NCBI RefSeq assembly: GCF_017348835.2
Contig: NZ_CP071375.1
Source of the DNA: Escherichia coli
Lineage (GTDB): Bacteria > Pseudomonadota > Gammaproteobacteria > Enterobacterales > Enterobacteriaceae
Strand: one strand, 5' to 3'
Length of the DNA: 64,000 nucleotides
Shown here: positions 57,058-63,974 of the stretch, piece after piece
Layout of the letters: every line of letters starts with the position of its first letter
Numbering within the stretch: the stretch's first letter is position 1
Notes under the pieces: generated by a model
The model's input: the letters and a program-made list of their open reading frames with translations, nothing else
What the model was told of the DNA's origin: nothing
Databases searched by the model: none
Program-made: the position numbers and the translations under genes

Positions 57058-58323
57058 ATGCTCACGAAAAAGAAATGGGCGTTATTTAGTCTATTAACAC
57101 TGTGTGGCGGTACAATTTATAAATTACCGTCGCTGAAAGATGCGTTTTATATCCCGATGCAGGAATATTTCCATTTGACCAATGGTCAAATTGGTAATGC
57201 TATGTCGGTAAACTCATTTGTTACCACAGTGGGCTTTTTTCTGTCTATTTATTTTGCCGATAAACTACCGCGCAGATACACCATGTCATTCTCACTCATT
57301 GCGACAGGATTACTGGGTGTTTATTTGACGACAATGCCGGGGTATTGGGGCATCCTCTTTGTCTGAGCGCTATTTGGCGTTACTTGCGACATGATGAACT
57401 GGCCGGTCTTGCTCAAGTCGGTAAGTCGATTGGGCAATAGCGAACAACAAGGTCGGTTGTTTGGCTTCTTCGAAACAGGGCGTGGCATTGTCGATACCGT
57501 GGTGGCATTTTCTGCGTTGGCAGTATTTACCTGGTTTGGCAGTGGCTTATTGGGTTTTAAAGCAGGCATCTGGTTCTATTCCCTTATTGTGATTGCCGTA
57601 GGCATTATTATTTTCTTTGTCCTGAATGACAAAGAAGAGGCACCGTCCGTTGAGGTGAAAAAAGAAGACGGAGCATCGCAAAACACCAGTATGACCTCGG
57701 TGCTGAGAGACAAAACTATCTGGCTTATCGCTTTCAACGTCTTCTTCGTTTACGCGGTTTACTGTGGCCTGACATTCTTCATTCCATTCCTGAAAAACAT
57801 CTATCTATTGCCCGTTGCGCTGGTGGGGGCTTACGGCATCATTAACCAATACTGTCTGAAAATGATTGGTGGACCGATTGGTGGCATGATTTCAGATAAG
57901 ATCCTGAAATCGCCAAGTAAATATCTATGCTACACCTTTATCATCAGTACCGCTGCGCTCGTACTGTTGATTATGCTGCCGCACGAAAGTATGCCGGTCT
58001 ATTTAGGGATGGCATGTACGCTGGGCTTTGGCGCGATAGTCTTTACACAGCGAGCCGTATTTTTTGCACCTATCGGCGAAGCAAAAATTGCTGAGAATAA
58101 AACAGGCGCGGCGATGGCGTTGGGTAGCTTTATTGGTTACGCCCCGGCGATGTTCTGCTTCAGTCTGTATGGCTACATTCTGGATTTAAATCCGGGGATT
58201 ATTGGCTACAAAATCGTGTTTGGCATTATGGCCTGCTTCGCATTCTGTGGTGCGGTGGTTTCCGTAATGCTGGTTAAGCGTATTAGCCAACGTAAGAAAG
58301 AGATGCTGGCGGCTGAAGCTTAA
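57058..58323 (+). pseudogene. yihN: MFS transporter yihN interrupted by an in-frame TGA at 57364-57366
   Basis: Two same-frame ORFs (102 aa ending ...GILFV-stop, then 310 aa from MMNWPVLL) separated by 24 nt that translate in frame (ALFGVTCD); together they reconstruct a 421-codon MFS transporter. Confidence 0.8.
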
Positions 58324-58413: not shown

Positions 58414-59106
58414 TCAGAAGAAATACTTCGTCCCGATACGAATCTGGTTTTGCTCGCGGTGGTACGGTTCCACGTTGCGATCTAACCAGCGCAATTCAAT
58501 ATAGGGCAGCCAGTGCTCGTTAATGCGGTAACGGAAGGTGTTAGTGATTTCCCAGTGATGCTTCGTGCCATTGCTGCTATTGAAATCATTAATGTTATAA
58601 AAATAATGCGGCTCAAAGGTATATGAGAACTTATCGGTAATAATAAAGTTCCAGTAGTTGCCAATCTCGTAGCTGTCATTATTATCCAGATCACCGTTTA
58701 AATCGGTTGAGCTGTAGTTATTATGGTTAAAACGATTGCGCACTGTCAGGTTAAACCACGGAGTAAATTTGTAGTTAACATCCAGATAAACAGCACCACC
58801 GGAACCGGCGCTCTTATCATTAATTAAGCCACCGGGCTGGATGGTTAATTTATCGGTTGGTTTAAATAACGGATACCAGCCTTCAATTTCGTTATATCCA
58901 TGTTTTAGTTCATCTTCTCGCTGAAAGGTGTAGGTATTGGTTAACATAATACCCGCGCCCATATCGAAGTTATAACCCACACGTAGCATAACCTCGCCCT
59001 GATCGGAGGCGAGATTATATGCCTCCCTGTTTTCGACGTATGCGCCAGCGAATACTGAGGCAGAGGTCAGAGAAGATAATAAAATTATTGCATTAATATT
59101 TTTCAT
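58414..59106 (-). CDS. ompL: Outer membrane porin L
   Basis: ORF track 58414..59172; Met23 (MKNINAIILLSSLTSASVFA signal peptide) gives 230 aa; C-terminal aromatic YFF. Confidence 0.9.
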   Translation of the reverse strand: MKNINAIILLSSLTSASVFAGAYVENREAYNLASDQGEVMLRVGYNFDMGAGIMLTNTYTFQREDELKHGYNEIEGWYPLFKPTDKLTIQPGGLINDKSAGSGGAVYLDVNYKFTPWFNLTVRNRFNHNNYSSTDLNGDLDNNDSYEIGNYWNFIITDKFSYTFEPHYFYNINDFNSSNGTKHHWEITNTFRYRINEHWLPYIELRWLDRNVEPYHREQNQIRIGTKYFF

Positions 59107-59172: not shown

Positions 59173-60056
59173 TTATAACGTTACGGAAGCCGTTTTTTCT
59201 TCTGTCGCCATCTCTTTATTTTTGCGTTGGTTGATTTCCTCAATAATCAACGCAAACCGTTTTTCATTGAGTGTGTAAAAGAATCCCATCGTCAATGCAG
59301 CAATAATTGCCAGTGCACAAGGCCAGATAAAAATGAGCTGACGCAAACCCTGTAATGTCGCATCACTTTGCGCGATGTTTGGAACATAACCGATTTGCGT
59401 CAGCATAATCCCTGGCAAGAAGCCAGCAAGTGCGGCAGAAATTTTACGAAAGAAGGTATAACCGGTATAAACAGAACCTTCGGCACGAATACCGGTTTTC
59501 CATTCACCGTAATCTACGGTATCTGGTACCAGTGCCCAGTTCAGGCTGTTTACAAAGGCCGTGCCAAAAAAGGCGACACAAGAGAACATGACGAAAGTGA
59601 AAGAGTTACTTCCCCAGAAATAATTCAGGATATCACCAACCGCCCATAGCACCATGCCAGCTAAATAAACCTGTTTTTTACCAAAACATTTTACAGTTAA
59701 TGGCACCAGTAATACGCCGATGAGGATGCATCCCATACTGAAGAATCCCATCCACGACAATAAATTAATATCATTCAGCACATACTGGGTGTAATAGACC
59801 TGAATCGCCAGTTTGATATTAAATGCCGCCAGGGTACACAAGTTAGCAATGCATAAAACCAGCAATGGCGGATTCCGAAATATCGCGCAAAATGATTTGA
59901 GAATACTGGCTTTATGTCCGGTTGGCGTTGTGTCCACATAATGCTCTTTGACGCCTCTGTAGCACAGCATCATAAAAATAAAGCCGCCAATGGAGAACAT
60001 AAGTGCCGCACAGGCATAACCGACGGTTGAGTCAGAAAAAAGCGACTGCAACGGAA
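59173..60056 (-). pseudogene. yihO: C-terminal ~294 codons of MFS (GPH family) transporter yihO; N-terminal ~170 codons absent, frame runs into IS629 end
   Basis: ORF-track product begins mid-protein (xQSLFSDSTVGYACAALMFSIGG...) with open frame upstream up to the IS inverted repeat at 60057; K-12 YihO is about 467 aa. Confidence 0.8.
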
Positions 60057-60098
60057 TGAACCGCCCCGGGTTTCCTGGAGAGTGTTTTATCTGTGAAC

Positions 60099-60986
60099 TC
60101 AGGCTGCCAGATCATTATTTCCGATGGAAGCATAATAAGCTTTTTCTGCTTCTGCCGGAGGAATATGGCCCAGCCTTTCCAGCAATCGTCGATTGTTATA
60201 CCAGTCCACCCACGTTAGTGTGGCCAGTTCCACTTCTGTCCGGTTTTTCCAGCTCTTACGGTGTATTACCTCCGCTTTGTAAAGACCATTGATGCTCTCA
60301 GCCATCGCGTTGTCATACGAGTCGCCAGTACTCCCTGTTGATGCCAGTAATCCGGCTTCCTTAAGCCGCTGCGTGTAGGCCAGCGATACATACTGAGAAC
60401 CTTTATCACTGTGATGGATTGTGCCGGACGGCCGACGGGCCCACAACGCCTGCTCCAGTGCATCCAGCACGAATGTTGTTTCCATGGATGATGAGACCTG
60501 CCATCCCACGATGTATCCGGCGAACACATCAATGATGAACGCCACATAAACGAAGCCCTGCCATGTGCTTACCCAGGTAAAATCAGCCACCCACAACTGG
60601 TCTGGACGTTCTGCCACGAACTGACGGTTTACGCGGTCGCATGCGGCAACGGCTTTCCGGCTGACGGTAGTGCGGACCTTTTTACCCCGGAGAACACCGG
60701 CAAGTCCCATAACTGCCATGAGACGTGCCACAGTGCATCTGGCCACTCTGATACCTTCCCGTAACAACTGACGCCAGACTTTACGCACACCGTATACCTG
60801 GTGATTTTCATCGTATACGCGCTGTATCTCTTTCTTCAGCCAGTCATCGTGCTGCGCACGGGCACTGCGTTTATCCGGATGATGTCGCTGTTGCTGACAA
60901 TGGTAATACGTTGACGGGGCAATATGCAGTTCGCTGCATACCGGTCCGCCCCCGTACTGCTCACGCAGCTTATCCAGCAGTGGCAT
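60099..60986 (-). CDS. IS629 transposase OrfB (DDE catalytic part)
   Basis: 295-aa ORF in the -1 frame relative to OrfA, overlapping its stop (AAAAAATAATG); DDE integrase-like (…WVADFTW…HSDKGSQY…). Confidence 0.9.
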   Translation of the reverse strand: MPLLDKLREQYGGGPVCSELHIAPSTYYHCQQQRHHPDKRSARAQHDDWLKKEIQRVYDENHQVYGVRKVWRQLLREGIRVARCTVARLMAVMGLAGVLRGKKVRTTVSRKAVAACDRVNRQFVAERPDQLWVADFTWVSTWQGFVYVAFIIDVFAGYIVGWQVSSSMETTFVLDALEQALWARRPSGTIHHSDKGSQYVSLAYTQRLKEAGLLASTGSTGDSYDNAMAESINGLYKAEVIHRKSWKNRTEVELATLTWVDWYNNRRLLERLGHIPPAEAEKAYYASIGNNDLAA

Positions 60987-61312
60987 TATTTTTTCCAGAG
61001 GCGGTCGAACTCCGCCTTCGCAAAATAAGCGGAAGCCTGGCGAAGGATATCGTTACTGCGGCGCAGTTCACGATTTTCACGTTCCAGCTCTTTCAGACGC
61101 TGACGTTCAGCGGTGGTGAGTCCACCATCACCACTCCCGGTATCCCGCTCATGCTGGCGAACCCAGACACGCAGAGTCTCCGGCGTACAGCCAATCTTTG
61201 GGGCAATGGAACAAATTGCCGCCCACTGTGAGTCATATTCATCCTGACTTTCCAGAACCATACGAATCGCCCGCTGACGGACTTCGGGGGAAAAACGAGT
61301 ATTTTTAGTCAT
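60986..61312 (-). CDS. IS629 transposase OrfA (HTH DNA-binding part)
   Basis: 108-aa [26 protein letters not shown]... with leucine-zipper-like C-terminus, typical IS3 OrfA. Confidence 0.9.
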
Positions 61313-61455
61313 CCTGTTTACCTCTTTCTCAGGGAGTTTAGTCTCCAGGATTTCCGGGGCGGTTCACATATCCATACCTGCCAGAGAGTTCATAAATATT
61401 TGACCAATATCATTTGAATCTATGGAGAGAAAAGTACCCTTGTCGGATCTTTAAA

Positions 61456-61535
61456 GAAAGCTCATTTACGCATCATTTTTTATTTTTGCGAGGCGTTTTC
61501 CAGATATGATGTAACAGTTGCAGTTATTATAAGTT
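61456..61535. repeat. Imperfect direct repeat, copy A (about 80 bp)
   Basis: GAAAGCTCATTTACGCATCATTTTTTATTTTTGCGAGGCGTTTTCCAGATATGATGTAACAGTTGCAGTTATTATAAGTT; about 75-80% identical to copy B at 61895. Confidence 0.6.
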
Positions 61536-61609
61536 CAAGTAAAACAGCCTTGTATTAATACCAGAATAAGGGCATCTGTTTTTTTATATTCAAGAATGAA
61601 AAATTTTTG

Positions 61610-61828
61610 TCATTCCTTATGCTCCTTACACTGATCATCAACACCAACTACCTCCCCCTTTTGCCTGCCTCCCTTTGCTTTACGTACCGGAAATTGCTGA
61701 CGTTCCAGATATTGCTCTACCGCTTCGCGTAAAATTGCAGATCGTGAAACCTTACGCCAGCCCCGAAGCTTGTTCAGCCGTTTAATTGCCTCTTCTGATA
61801 AATGAAGAAAAACCGTATTCATCGCCAT
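61610..61828 (-). CDS. Ribbon-helix-helix (CopG/Arc/MetJ-like) small DNA-binding protein, 72 aa; possibly YiiE-like
   Basis: ORF track 61610..61855; start at Met10 (MAMNTVFLHLSEEAIKRLNKLRGWRKVSRSAILREAVEQYLERQ) preceded by AAGGTGG RBS; beta-strand then two helices pattern of RHH fold; basic C-terminal tail. Confidence 0.7.
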   Translation of the reverse strand: MAMNTVFLHLSEEAIKRLNKLRGWRKVSRSAILREAVEQYLERQQFPVRKAKGGRQKGEVVGVDDQCKEHKE

Positions 61829-62498: not shown

Positions 62499-63974
62499 TC
62501 AGACTCCCATCCCTACGGTATACGAGTTAGATTCATGAATGAAATCGACATTTTTAAAAAACGAATCTTGTAAAACATCCGTGTTGATATTACCTTGCAA
62601 CCCAACATTAAATTTGTTAGAGACATGAAGAACTCGAATATCAAAAAGGTCTTTTAACATCATTACTTCTTCGGCTGTTAATGAATCGCAACTAAAATAT
62701 CCCTGTTGATCAAAAAGGTTTTCTATTTCTCCACCATCGGCGAGGCGTTTTTCAAGGAGTGTTTGCAACATCGAGTTGCCAAGGACAATGGATATAGTGC
62801 GATCTTTCGCAGATTTACACCCCATCACAACGGCAACATTCGTATCCCCCTCAGGAGTTTCATTTATCGCTGTCGCTAAAATGGTGGTCAAACACGCAAA
62901 CGGAACTGTATTTCTTTCGTGATTTAATTTATCTACCAGTTCATTCCATTTATCAAAAGCCGGACGATATTTGTTGCGCACAGAAATATCCGACTGGTTA
63001 AACAATTCAGCCATGCGATTTTTTATCATCTCGATATCCGGCGAACCAGAAAGACTTTGCGCATAATACGGTCCTGATGATGTTGCATACATTAAAGCCG
63101 AGCCCACACCTGTCGCCATGATGGGCGCAGCCACGGTTTTGGCAAGGGCGACGCTGCGATGGCTATGCGCTTCACAGGTTAAAGGAACATATTCCACTGA
63201 CTGCGGTAATTCCTTACATGCCTCCCTCATCATTGCGGTATGCTTTACAAACAACGGTTTTTCACTGCCAAAAAAAACCTTCTGCTTAATTGCACTAAGA
63301 AAACGCAAATCAAAAATGATTGTTTTTGGTTTATTATTTTTTGGCACATTTCCTATTATCCCGCTAAGAACCTTCCTTGCTGCATGGAGATTTTTTTGCA
63401 CAGCACATAACACAATTGACGAAGCCTTCTCTACTTCGTCATTGATTTTAATTTTAAAATCTGCATGATATACGTTGACGGGCAGTGCAAGTATATCTGG
63501 CCCTACATCTTTGGCTGAGTATTTATTGGTGATCGACGGCCGTGAATCCACGAGAAAACTTAGCTGCAAATTATGCTCTATATTACCAGCTGTTTTTGTG
63601 GTGTGATTAAACATAGAGATGCCACCTCTCATTCTTTCACACATATCCTCAACTTTTTCACTTCGTTCTTGTGGCAATTTGGCTTTAACGTTAATTTGAT
63701 GATTTTTACCCGTGCATTCCTTAACTACAAGGGGAATGTTATCTAAAGTGCCATACAGGCTAATAACGTCACCAGGATTTTTATCATGTAAGTAAGTTTG
63801 ATTAATACTTGAAGCATTCACAAAGAGGTCAATATTATAACTGTTTATAACTTCACCTACATCAAATGTGTAGTGCTTACTCTGGAGGCTGCCATCCTTA
63901 TTTAATTGTATATCAATCAATATATCCCCGGACTTTGTCACCATATCTTTGCCATAAACCATTTGCATAGCCAT
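62499..63974 (-). CDS. Putative CX5R P-loop phosphatase, phosphoinositide-phosphatase-like (INPP4 / SopB / IpgD-type); N-terminus probably beyond window edge
   Basis: 491-aa ORF with no in-frame stop between first ATG (63974) and window end; exact CKSAKDRT octapeptide at residues 386-393 (minus strand 62819..62796, read directly as TGT AAA TCT GCG AAA GAT CGC ACT); AT-rich composition; next to IS629. Confidence 0.6.
   Translation of the reverse strand: MAMQMVYGKDMVTKSGDILIDIQLNKDGSLQSKHYTFDVGEVINSYNIDLFVNASSINQTYLHDKNPGDVISLYGTLDNIPLVVKECTGKNHQINVKAKLPQERSEKVEDMCERMRGGISMFNHTTKTAGNIEHNLQLSFLVDSRPSITNKYSAKDVGPDILALPVNVYHADFKIKINDEVEKASSIVLCAVQKNLHAARKVLSGIIGNVPKNNKPKTIIFDLRFLSAIKQKVFFGSEKPLFVKHTAMMREACKELPQSVEYVPLTCEAHSHRSVALAKTVAAPIMATGVGSALMYATSSGPYYAQSLSGSPDIEMIKNRMAELFNQSDISVRNKYRPAFDKWNELVDKLNHERNTVPFACLTTILATAINETPEGDTNVAVVMGCKSAKDRTISIVLGNSMLQTLLEKRLADGGEIENLFDQQGYFSCDSLTAEEVMMLKDLFDIRVLHVSNKFNVGLQGNINTDVLQDSFFKNVDFIHESNSYTVGMGV

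Follow-up and report, generated by a model that had tools for sequence, protein, structure and literature searches.

The window, by which we mean the entire 64-kb stretch of DNA that was analysed, consists for the most part of ordinary E. coli backbone extending from pldA over an rrn operon, polA and glnA to typA. Analysis of its right-hand end revealed an intact ompL porin gene (58414–59106, minus strand), recovered at full length by tblastn and annotated by PGAP, followed by a 3′ fragment of yihO (59173–60056, minus strand) that corresponds to nucleotides 521–1404 of the 1404-nt gene and represents a non-functional remnant. The open reading frame at this position (59173–60051, minus strand), when extended to 60056, encodes the C-terminal portion of YihO: a tblastn search with the 467-aa K-12 protein returned a match of 100% identity to about residues 173/174–467, and the N-terminal ~172 codons are absent from 59173–60056. 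In an NCBIfam profile search the fragment covered positions 163–437 of the 437 positions of the GPH symporter model TIGR00792, and no full-length YihO of ~467 aa spanning the whole model was found at this site. The breakpoint, mapped against the pig isolate F2_81, coincides with the exact start of the terminal inverted repeat of an insertion sequence, and PGAP had independently called the fragment “missing N-terminus” in the matching public record. An earlier note, made from the sequence of the window, had described yihO as truncated at an insertion sequence, and this was confirmed, with only residues 173–467 of the K-12 protein remaining directly against the element.

The adjoining element is a complete, 1310-bp copy of IS629 (IS3 family; 60057–61366, minus strand), as judged from its inverted repeats, NCBIfam, PGAP and its similarity to phage BP-4795, whose copy annotated as IS629 (transposase OrfA/OrfB) is 99.5% identical over 1310 bp. 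The 25-nt terminal inverted repeats at 60057–60081 and 61342–61366, with arms that are 88% complementary (TGAACCGCCCCGG...), enclose two overlapping reading frames, orfA (60986–61312, minus strand, 108 aa) and orfB (60099–60986, minus strand, 295 aa), which match positions 1–86 and 93–369 of the NCBIfam model NF033516 (transpos_IS3), respectively. PGAP describes the same element as “IS3 family transposase, programmed frameshift” and additionally marks a pseudoknot. Beyond the element lies a stretch (61367–61609) that is colinear with F2_81 from L002 20001 onwards and constitutes the former yiiE–yiiF intergenic DNA, which natively precedes yiiF but is no longer connected to it. It is followed by an intact yiiE encoding a CopG/RHH regulator (61610–61828, minus strand; PGAP, 100% identical to K-12 YiiE) and by an open reading frame carrying a CX5R motif. 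As these are the next genes after the element, and as tblastn detected no homologues of yihP–yihW within the 64-kb window, the earlier observation that the K-12 neighbours of yihO are not adjacent to it was borne out.

Comparison of the last 12 kb of the window with the chromosome of E. coli PE164 (NZ_CP114128.1) gave 2 mismatches in 12,001 bases, and the yihO′–IS–yiiE junction was found in PE164 only, that is in 1 of 5,426 complete genomes. PE164 is a pig aEPEC/ExPEC hybrid (O108:H9) with a 5.03-Mb chromosome, obtained in Nanjing from a piglet suffering from bloody diarrhoea, while F2_81 is a close relative from a pig in Australia that has neither the IS nor an inversion at this locus. In PE164 the order to the left of the IS is typA, yihL, yihM, yihN, ompL and yihO′, and the block behind the IS, of which yiiE is the first gene, comprises yiiE, the open reading frame, fabY, dtd, yihY, yihX, csqR, yihV, yihU and yihT and continues with yihS, yihR, a TauE/SafE gene, yihQ, yihP and ′yihO, after which a further IS, yiiF and fdhE follow. 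According to their gene tables, K-12 and F2_81 carry the same block free of IS elements and in the opposite orientation, and the synteny comparison with K-12 proposed earlier yields the same genes with the block reversed. Using tblastn, we found YihP, YihQ, YihR, YihS, YihT, YihU, YihV, CsqR, YihX, YihY, Dtd and FabY at full length in PE164 with 95–100% identity to K-12; the yihP–csqR cluster runs in reversed order and starts ~4.4 kb outside the window. Of the suggestion that the start of this cluster had been deleted or relocated, only the relocation stands, as the reversed block lies just past the window end and nothing has been lost. The likewise proposed search for yihP–yihW homologues recovered the cluster intact in PE164; an intact yihO was not recovered, and the gene is represented by two fragments only. 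YihO residues 1–174 map to the opposite strand of the PE164 chromosome at a distance of 18.6 kb (tblastn), where nucleotides 1–523 of the gene adjoin a second copy of IS629 and are annotated by PGAP as a 522-bp “MFS transporter, missing C-terminus”. These data demonstrate that yihO has been broken into two parts, neither of which is functional. Of the ten genes of the long sulfoquinovose cassette (ompL, yihO–yihV and yihW/csqR), nine are intact in PE164, and the exception is the split yihO.

The second IS629 is located in inverted orientation in the PE164 chromosome at the start codon of yiiF and shares 99.85% identity with the window copy, from which it differs at two positions, and at one position from the counterpart of that copy in the RefSeq record. 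In the PE164 record the two copies occupy 4817452–4818761 and 4836090–4837399 on opposite strands, and the segment between them (4818762–4836089) measures 17.3 kb. The junctions of the window copy read ...CAACGGAA–IS–CATATCC..., and those of the second copy ...TGCCCAT–IS–GAATAAACG.... A matching target duplication is absent around the window copy; the 3-bp flanks are swapped between the two elements, GAA–IS–CAT in the window versus CAT–IS–GAA at the second copy, so that both duplications appear once the flanks are paired across the copies. The GAA at 60054–60056 corresponds to nucleotides 521–523 of yihO (TTC on the gene strand) and is one copy of the target duplication of the yihO insertion, the other copy flanking the second IS629 outside the window. 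Likewise, the CAT at 61367–61369 belongs to the duplication made by the second insertion, as one of its two copies, and represents the reverse complement of the yiiF ATG as annotated in K-12, an assignment that was made by comparison with the upstream sequences of K-12 and F2_81. On the uninterrupted F2_81 chromosome the two yihO flanks share a 3-bp overlap (L002 37326–37328), as do the two yiiE/yiiF flanks (L002 20001–20003). Joining the yihO pieces of 523 and 884 nt minus one duplication restores an open frame of 1404 nt with 0 mismatches to the intact F2_81 gene, which indicates that the split is very recent. A literature search combining IS629, target-site duplication and inversion returned no report, and a broader one yielded general IS629 background; the duplication length of 3 bp was accordingly read off the sequence.

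Near-identical IS copies in opposed orientation, the reciprocal exchange of their duplications and the retention of all intervening genes in reversed order were thus found together, and we consider it likely that the locus arose by two IS629 insertions followed by recombination that inverted the 17.3-kb segment. In such a course of events, two copies of IS629 would have inserted independently in the PE164 lineage, the first into yihO after nucleotide 523 and co-directional with the gene, the second, facing the other way, precisely at the yiiF ATG, and at each site 3 bp of target DNA would have been duplicated. In a later step, homologous recombination between the inverted 1310-bp copies would have flipped the 17.3 kb between them, including yiiE, the adjacent open reading frame, fabY, dtd, yihY, yihX, csqR, yihV–yihR, the TauE/SafE gene, yihQ, yihP and the first 523 nt of yihO. 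In this way, ompL and the yihO 3′ fragment would have become linked via IS629 to yiiE, and the cluster would have remained intact in reversed orientation. None of the 5,426 genomes was found to carry one insertion without the other, and the order of events is therefore deduced rather than observed; in TST3 and TBE6, the best partial matches to the junction, the IS3-family element is located around yihM/yihN. The only gene destroyed is yihO, and the rearrangement is an ordinary strain-specific event.

The four junctions between flanks and IS are identical whether or not the segment is inverted, and the orientation of the block accordingly rests on the assembly or on reads spanning 1.3 kb. The same junctions would also be obtained from two simple IS629 insertions, into yihO and into the yiiF start codon, with the apparent inversion reflecting an assembly choice or a culture of mixed orientation, and in the uninverted order each element would be flanked by perfect 3-bp direct repeats, TTC/TTC and CAT/CAT. 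Furthermore, Illumina NovaSeq and Unicycler are the only sequencing procedures named in the paper describing PE164, which mentions neither IS629 nor PacBio or Nanopore (PMC12233904). The PE164 assembly is moreover a second version, from which the window differs at two bases, 59724 (G/A, in the yihO fragment) and 60949 (C/A, position 893 of IS629); with one of these differences located inside the IS, the PE164 sequence has evidently been revised, and the window probably derives from a different version of this assembly or from a sibling isolate. However, a single closed circle of 5.03 Mb, despite ~32 IS629 places and the rRNA operons, is unlikely to have been obtained without spanning information, and the yihO′–IS–yiiE join is present both in the window and in the RefSeq record, although the two are not byte-identical. 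We therefore regard two insertions without inversion as unlikely, though still deserving some weight; if this were the case, yihO would still be disrupted by IS629, and only the relocation would disappear.

IS elements of the IS3 family transpose by a copy-out-paste-in mechanism via a circular intermediate, which leads to simple insertions and not to inversions. A one-step intramolecular transposition, in which a resident IS629 attacked the other site and thereby generated the second copy and the inversion together, is a poor fit to this mechanism, even though it would leave the same sequence signature as recombination and lead to the same end product of inverted copies with both 3-bp repeats exchanged. 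The lack of a single-insertion intermediate among the surveyed genomes would also be in line with a single step. On the other hand, the two copies differ at 1–2 positions, whereas a freshly made copy should be identical, and we judge this route improbable.

Two independent insertions with subsequent recombination, the reading that we prefer, would also have altered the surroundings of the genes at both ends of the block. In K-12, ompL is located 67 bp downstream of yihO; in PE164 the gene has been parted from yihP and from the 5′ portion of yihO, and the IS629 transposase genes now precede it on its own strand. At the other end, yiiF (L003 12234–12452, outside the window) has kept its ATG, the IS629 end replacing the ribosome-binding region and promoter. 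Judged by this arrangement, both ompL and yiiF would have lost their native upstream DNA and now each lie directly downstream of the right end of an IS629 copy, on the transposase strand. OmpL itself is only 93% identical to the K-12 protein, compared with 98–100% for the neighbouring proteins, and looks like a divergent porin allele. The yihN gene for an MFS transporter (57058–58323, plus strand) is a pseudogene owing to W103* (TGG>TGA at 57364–57366, as compared with the K-12 codons), which PGAP flags as an internal stop; the nonsense codon reported in the earlier note is thus real. The exact 61-mer around this stop occurs in PE164 and F2_81 only, among 4,288 genomes carrying the region, which makes it a marker of this lineage of pig isolates from China and Australia in a separate transporter gene, and provides no evidence of decay of the sulfoquinovose pathway. 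It is conceivable, but in our view has only a very slim chance of being correct, that the IS629-bounded block is a reversible or selected rearrangement which frees ompL and yiiF from their native control and switches sulfoquinovose import off, as an adaptive rewiring in a pig aEPEC/ExPEC lineage that also carries the yihN nonsense codon.

An IS-mediated deletion of the 5′ part of yihO together with at least the start of yihP–yihW, as part of locus decay, is suggested within the window by an IS without matching duplication followed by DNA that is 13.5 kb away in K-12, and such a deletion is known from the pig strain PM7 (csqR′–IS1–′yihO), but it was rejected as practically untenable for PE164, as the second IS, the yihO 5′ fragment (nucleotides 1–523) and all cluster genes from yihP to fabY are present at full length on the same chromosome and the missing halves of both target duplications were found at the second IS copy. 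Consequently, the sugar-locus decay put forward earlier did not hold: one gene was broken by an IS and an inversion, and yihP–yihV and csqR are all of full length. The same applies to the supposed pattern of host-restricted Escherichia/Shigella lineages, given that the genome is that of a 5.03-Mb pig aEPEC/ExPEC E. coli, though with an expanded IS629 complement; neither genome decay nor host restriction finds support in PE164. More generally, a gene truncated by an IS and followed by distant DNA can mimic a deletion as long as a single window is considered, and unmatched 3-bp flanks are a clue to a partner IS copy and to seemingly lost genes elsewhere.

IS629 matches the PE164 chromosome at 32 places and the F2_81 chromosome at 26, with 6 further matches on one F2_81 plasmid, compared with a median of 4 among genomes having any. 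The element is thus expanded in the PE164/F2_81 lineage to a similar extent as in O157, for which 23 copies have been reported (PMC9943667). Inversions, deletions and the inactivation of genes are known effects of ISs in general, and for IS629 many gene inactivations and deletions have been described in O157 (PMC9943667). The IS629 polymorphisms of O157:H7 and other EHEC/EPEC involve the same element at high copy number, likewise with gene inactivation and rearrangement; PE164 differs from the O157 cases in that a 17.3-kb inversion rather than a deletion or excision is present, in a porcine O108:H9 aEPEC/ExPEC host. A closer counterpart at this locus is E. coli PM7, also a pig isolate with a yihO 3′ remnant beside ompL and an IS at the break. 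In PM7, however, yihP–yihV are truly lost (csqR′–IS1A–′yihO–ompL), whereas PE164 retains all of them. The PM7 locus (L008 12803–14126) displays an IS1A-mediated deletion that extends from yihO, of which 141 bp are left, into csqR.

Among the 5,426 complete genomes, 3,890 carry yihO, in 3,880 of which the gene is of full length in one place, and about 28% are without it; no genome has more than two yihO places, and the pair in PE164 corresponds to its two fragments. Two forms of the yih (sulfo-EMP) cassette have been described, a long ompL-yihOPQRSTUVW form and a short form with reversed yihTUVW (Kaznadzey et al. 2025, PMC12608037). The common absence of yihO fits the published short cassette, and disruption inside the long cassette is rare. 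PE164 shares the locus with both published forms, whose orientation is already variable, but combines the full long cassette and a TauE/SafE gene, inverted together with yihX–yiiE, with an IS629-split yihO. Its arrangement is a third form of the yih cassette, seen in one genome. The TauE/SafE-family sulfite exporter gene, an accessory member of the sulfoquinovose cluster, is located between yihQ and yihR in both PE164 and F2_81 (L001 27380–28255 and L003 17903–18778, outside the window) and does not occur in the published scheme of long and short cassettes; in K-12 the gap between yihQ and yihR amounts to 199 bp only and is free of this gene.

Regarding the possible consequences, sulfoquinovose is predicted to be imported by YihO, and the Keio collection ΔyihO mutant of K-12 does not grow on this sugar (PMC6278857). 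PE164 resembles this mutant in that both are without the predicted importer and have intact enzymes; we would therefore predict that PE164 possesses all sulfoglycolysis enzymes without YihO, and has probably lost the predicted route of import while retaining every enzyme. As Nissle 1917, which is without yihO, still grows on sulfoquinovose (PMC12608037), the phenotype of PE164 cannot be assumed from its genotype.

The open reading frame behind yiiE, located between yiiE and fabY inside the inverted block, does not form part of the rearrangement event. It comprises 604 codons in an uninterrupted frame on the minus strand, of which the 3′ 1.5 kb lie in the window (62499–64000, on to 64313; L001 16200–18014), but PGAP divides it between a “transposase” and a “hypothetical protein” labelled pseudo. 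No Pfam match, including to the IpgD family, was obtained for the protein or for any of 22 relatives, and the protein had no sequence match in NCBIfam or the PDB. An exhaustive HMMER search delineated a family of 52 representatives, and in a 22-member alignment of diverse relatives C499, D504 and R505 of the CX5R motif GCKSAKDRT are invariant. The AF2 model reached a pLDDT of 84.4 with the family alignment, compared with 36 from the single sequence. Foldseek returned Salmonella SopB (8jzl_A, E 5.5e-8) as the top PDB match, followed by the Legionella phosphoinositide phosphatases 4jza and 4fyf, with TM-scores of only 0.3–0.46 in the fold comparison. Neighbours in the AFDB beyond the Escherichia/Shigella orthologues carry IpgD, SopB or inositol phosphatase names at E values of about 1e-8. 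The phosphatase-like label that the earlier note had given to this gene is therefore right by fold and motif (SopB 8jzl_A, CX5R), while its phosphatase activity is putative. A literature search for SopB/IpgD homologues linked to yiiE found none. It is possible that this strain, which carries a LEE type III secretion system, encodes a SopB/IpgD-like phosphoinositide phosphatase that has so far gone undescribed.

The reading frame is ~98% identical in many E. coli, including O157:H7. K-12 has kept only its first 22 codons (L004 20850–20915), a clean ~2.0-kb deletion joining the flanks, which explains the 852-bp “empty” gap between fabY and yiiE in that strain. With its SopB-like fold, its wide distribution in E. 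coli and its deletion in K-12, this gene is probably of more interest than the split of yihO.
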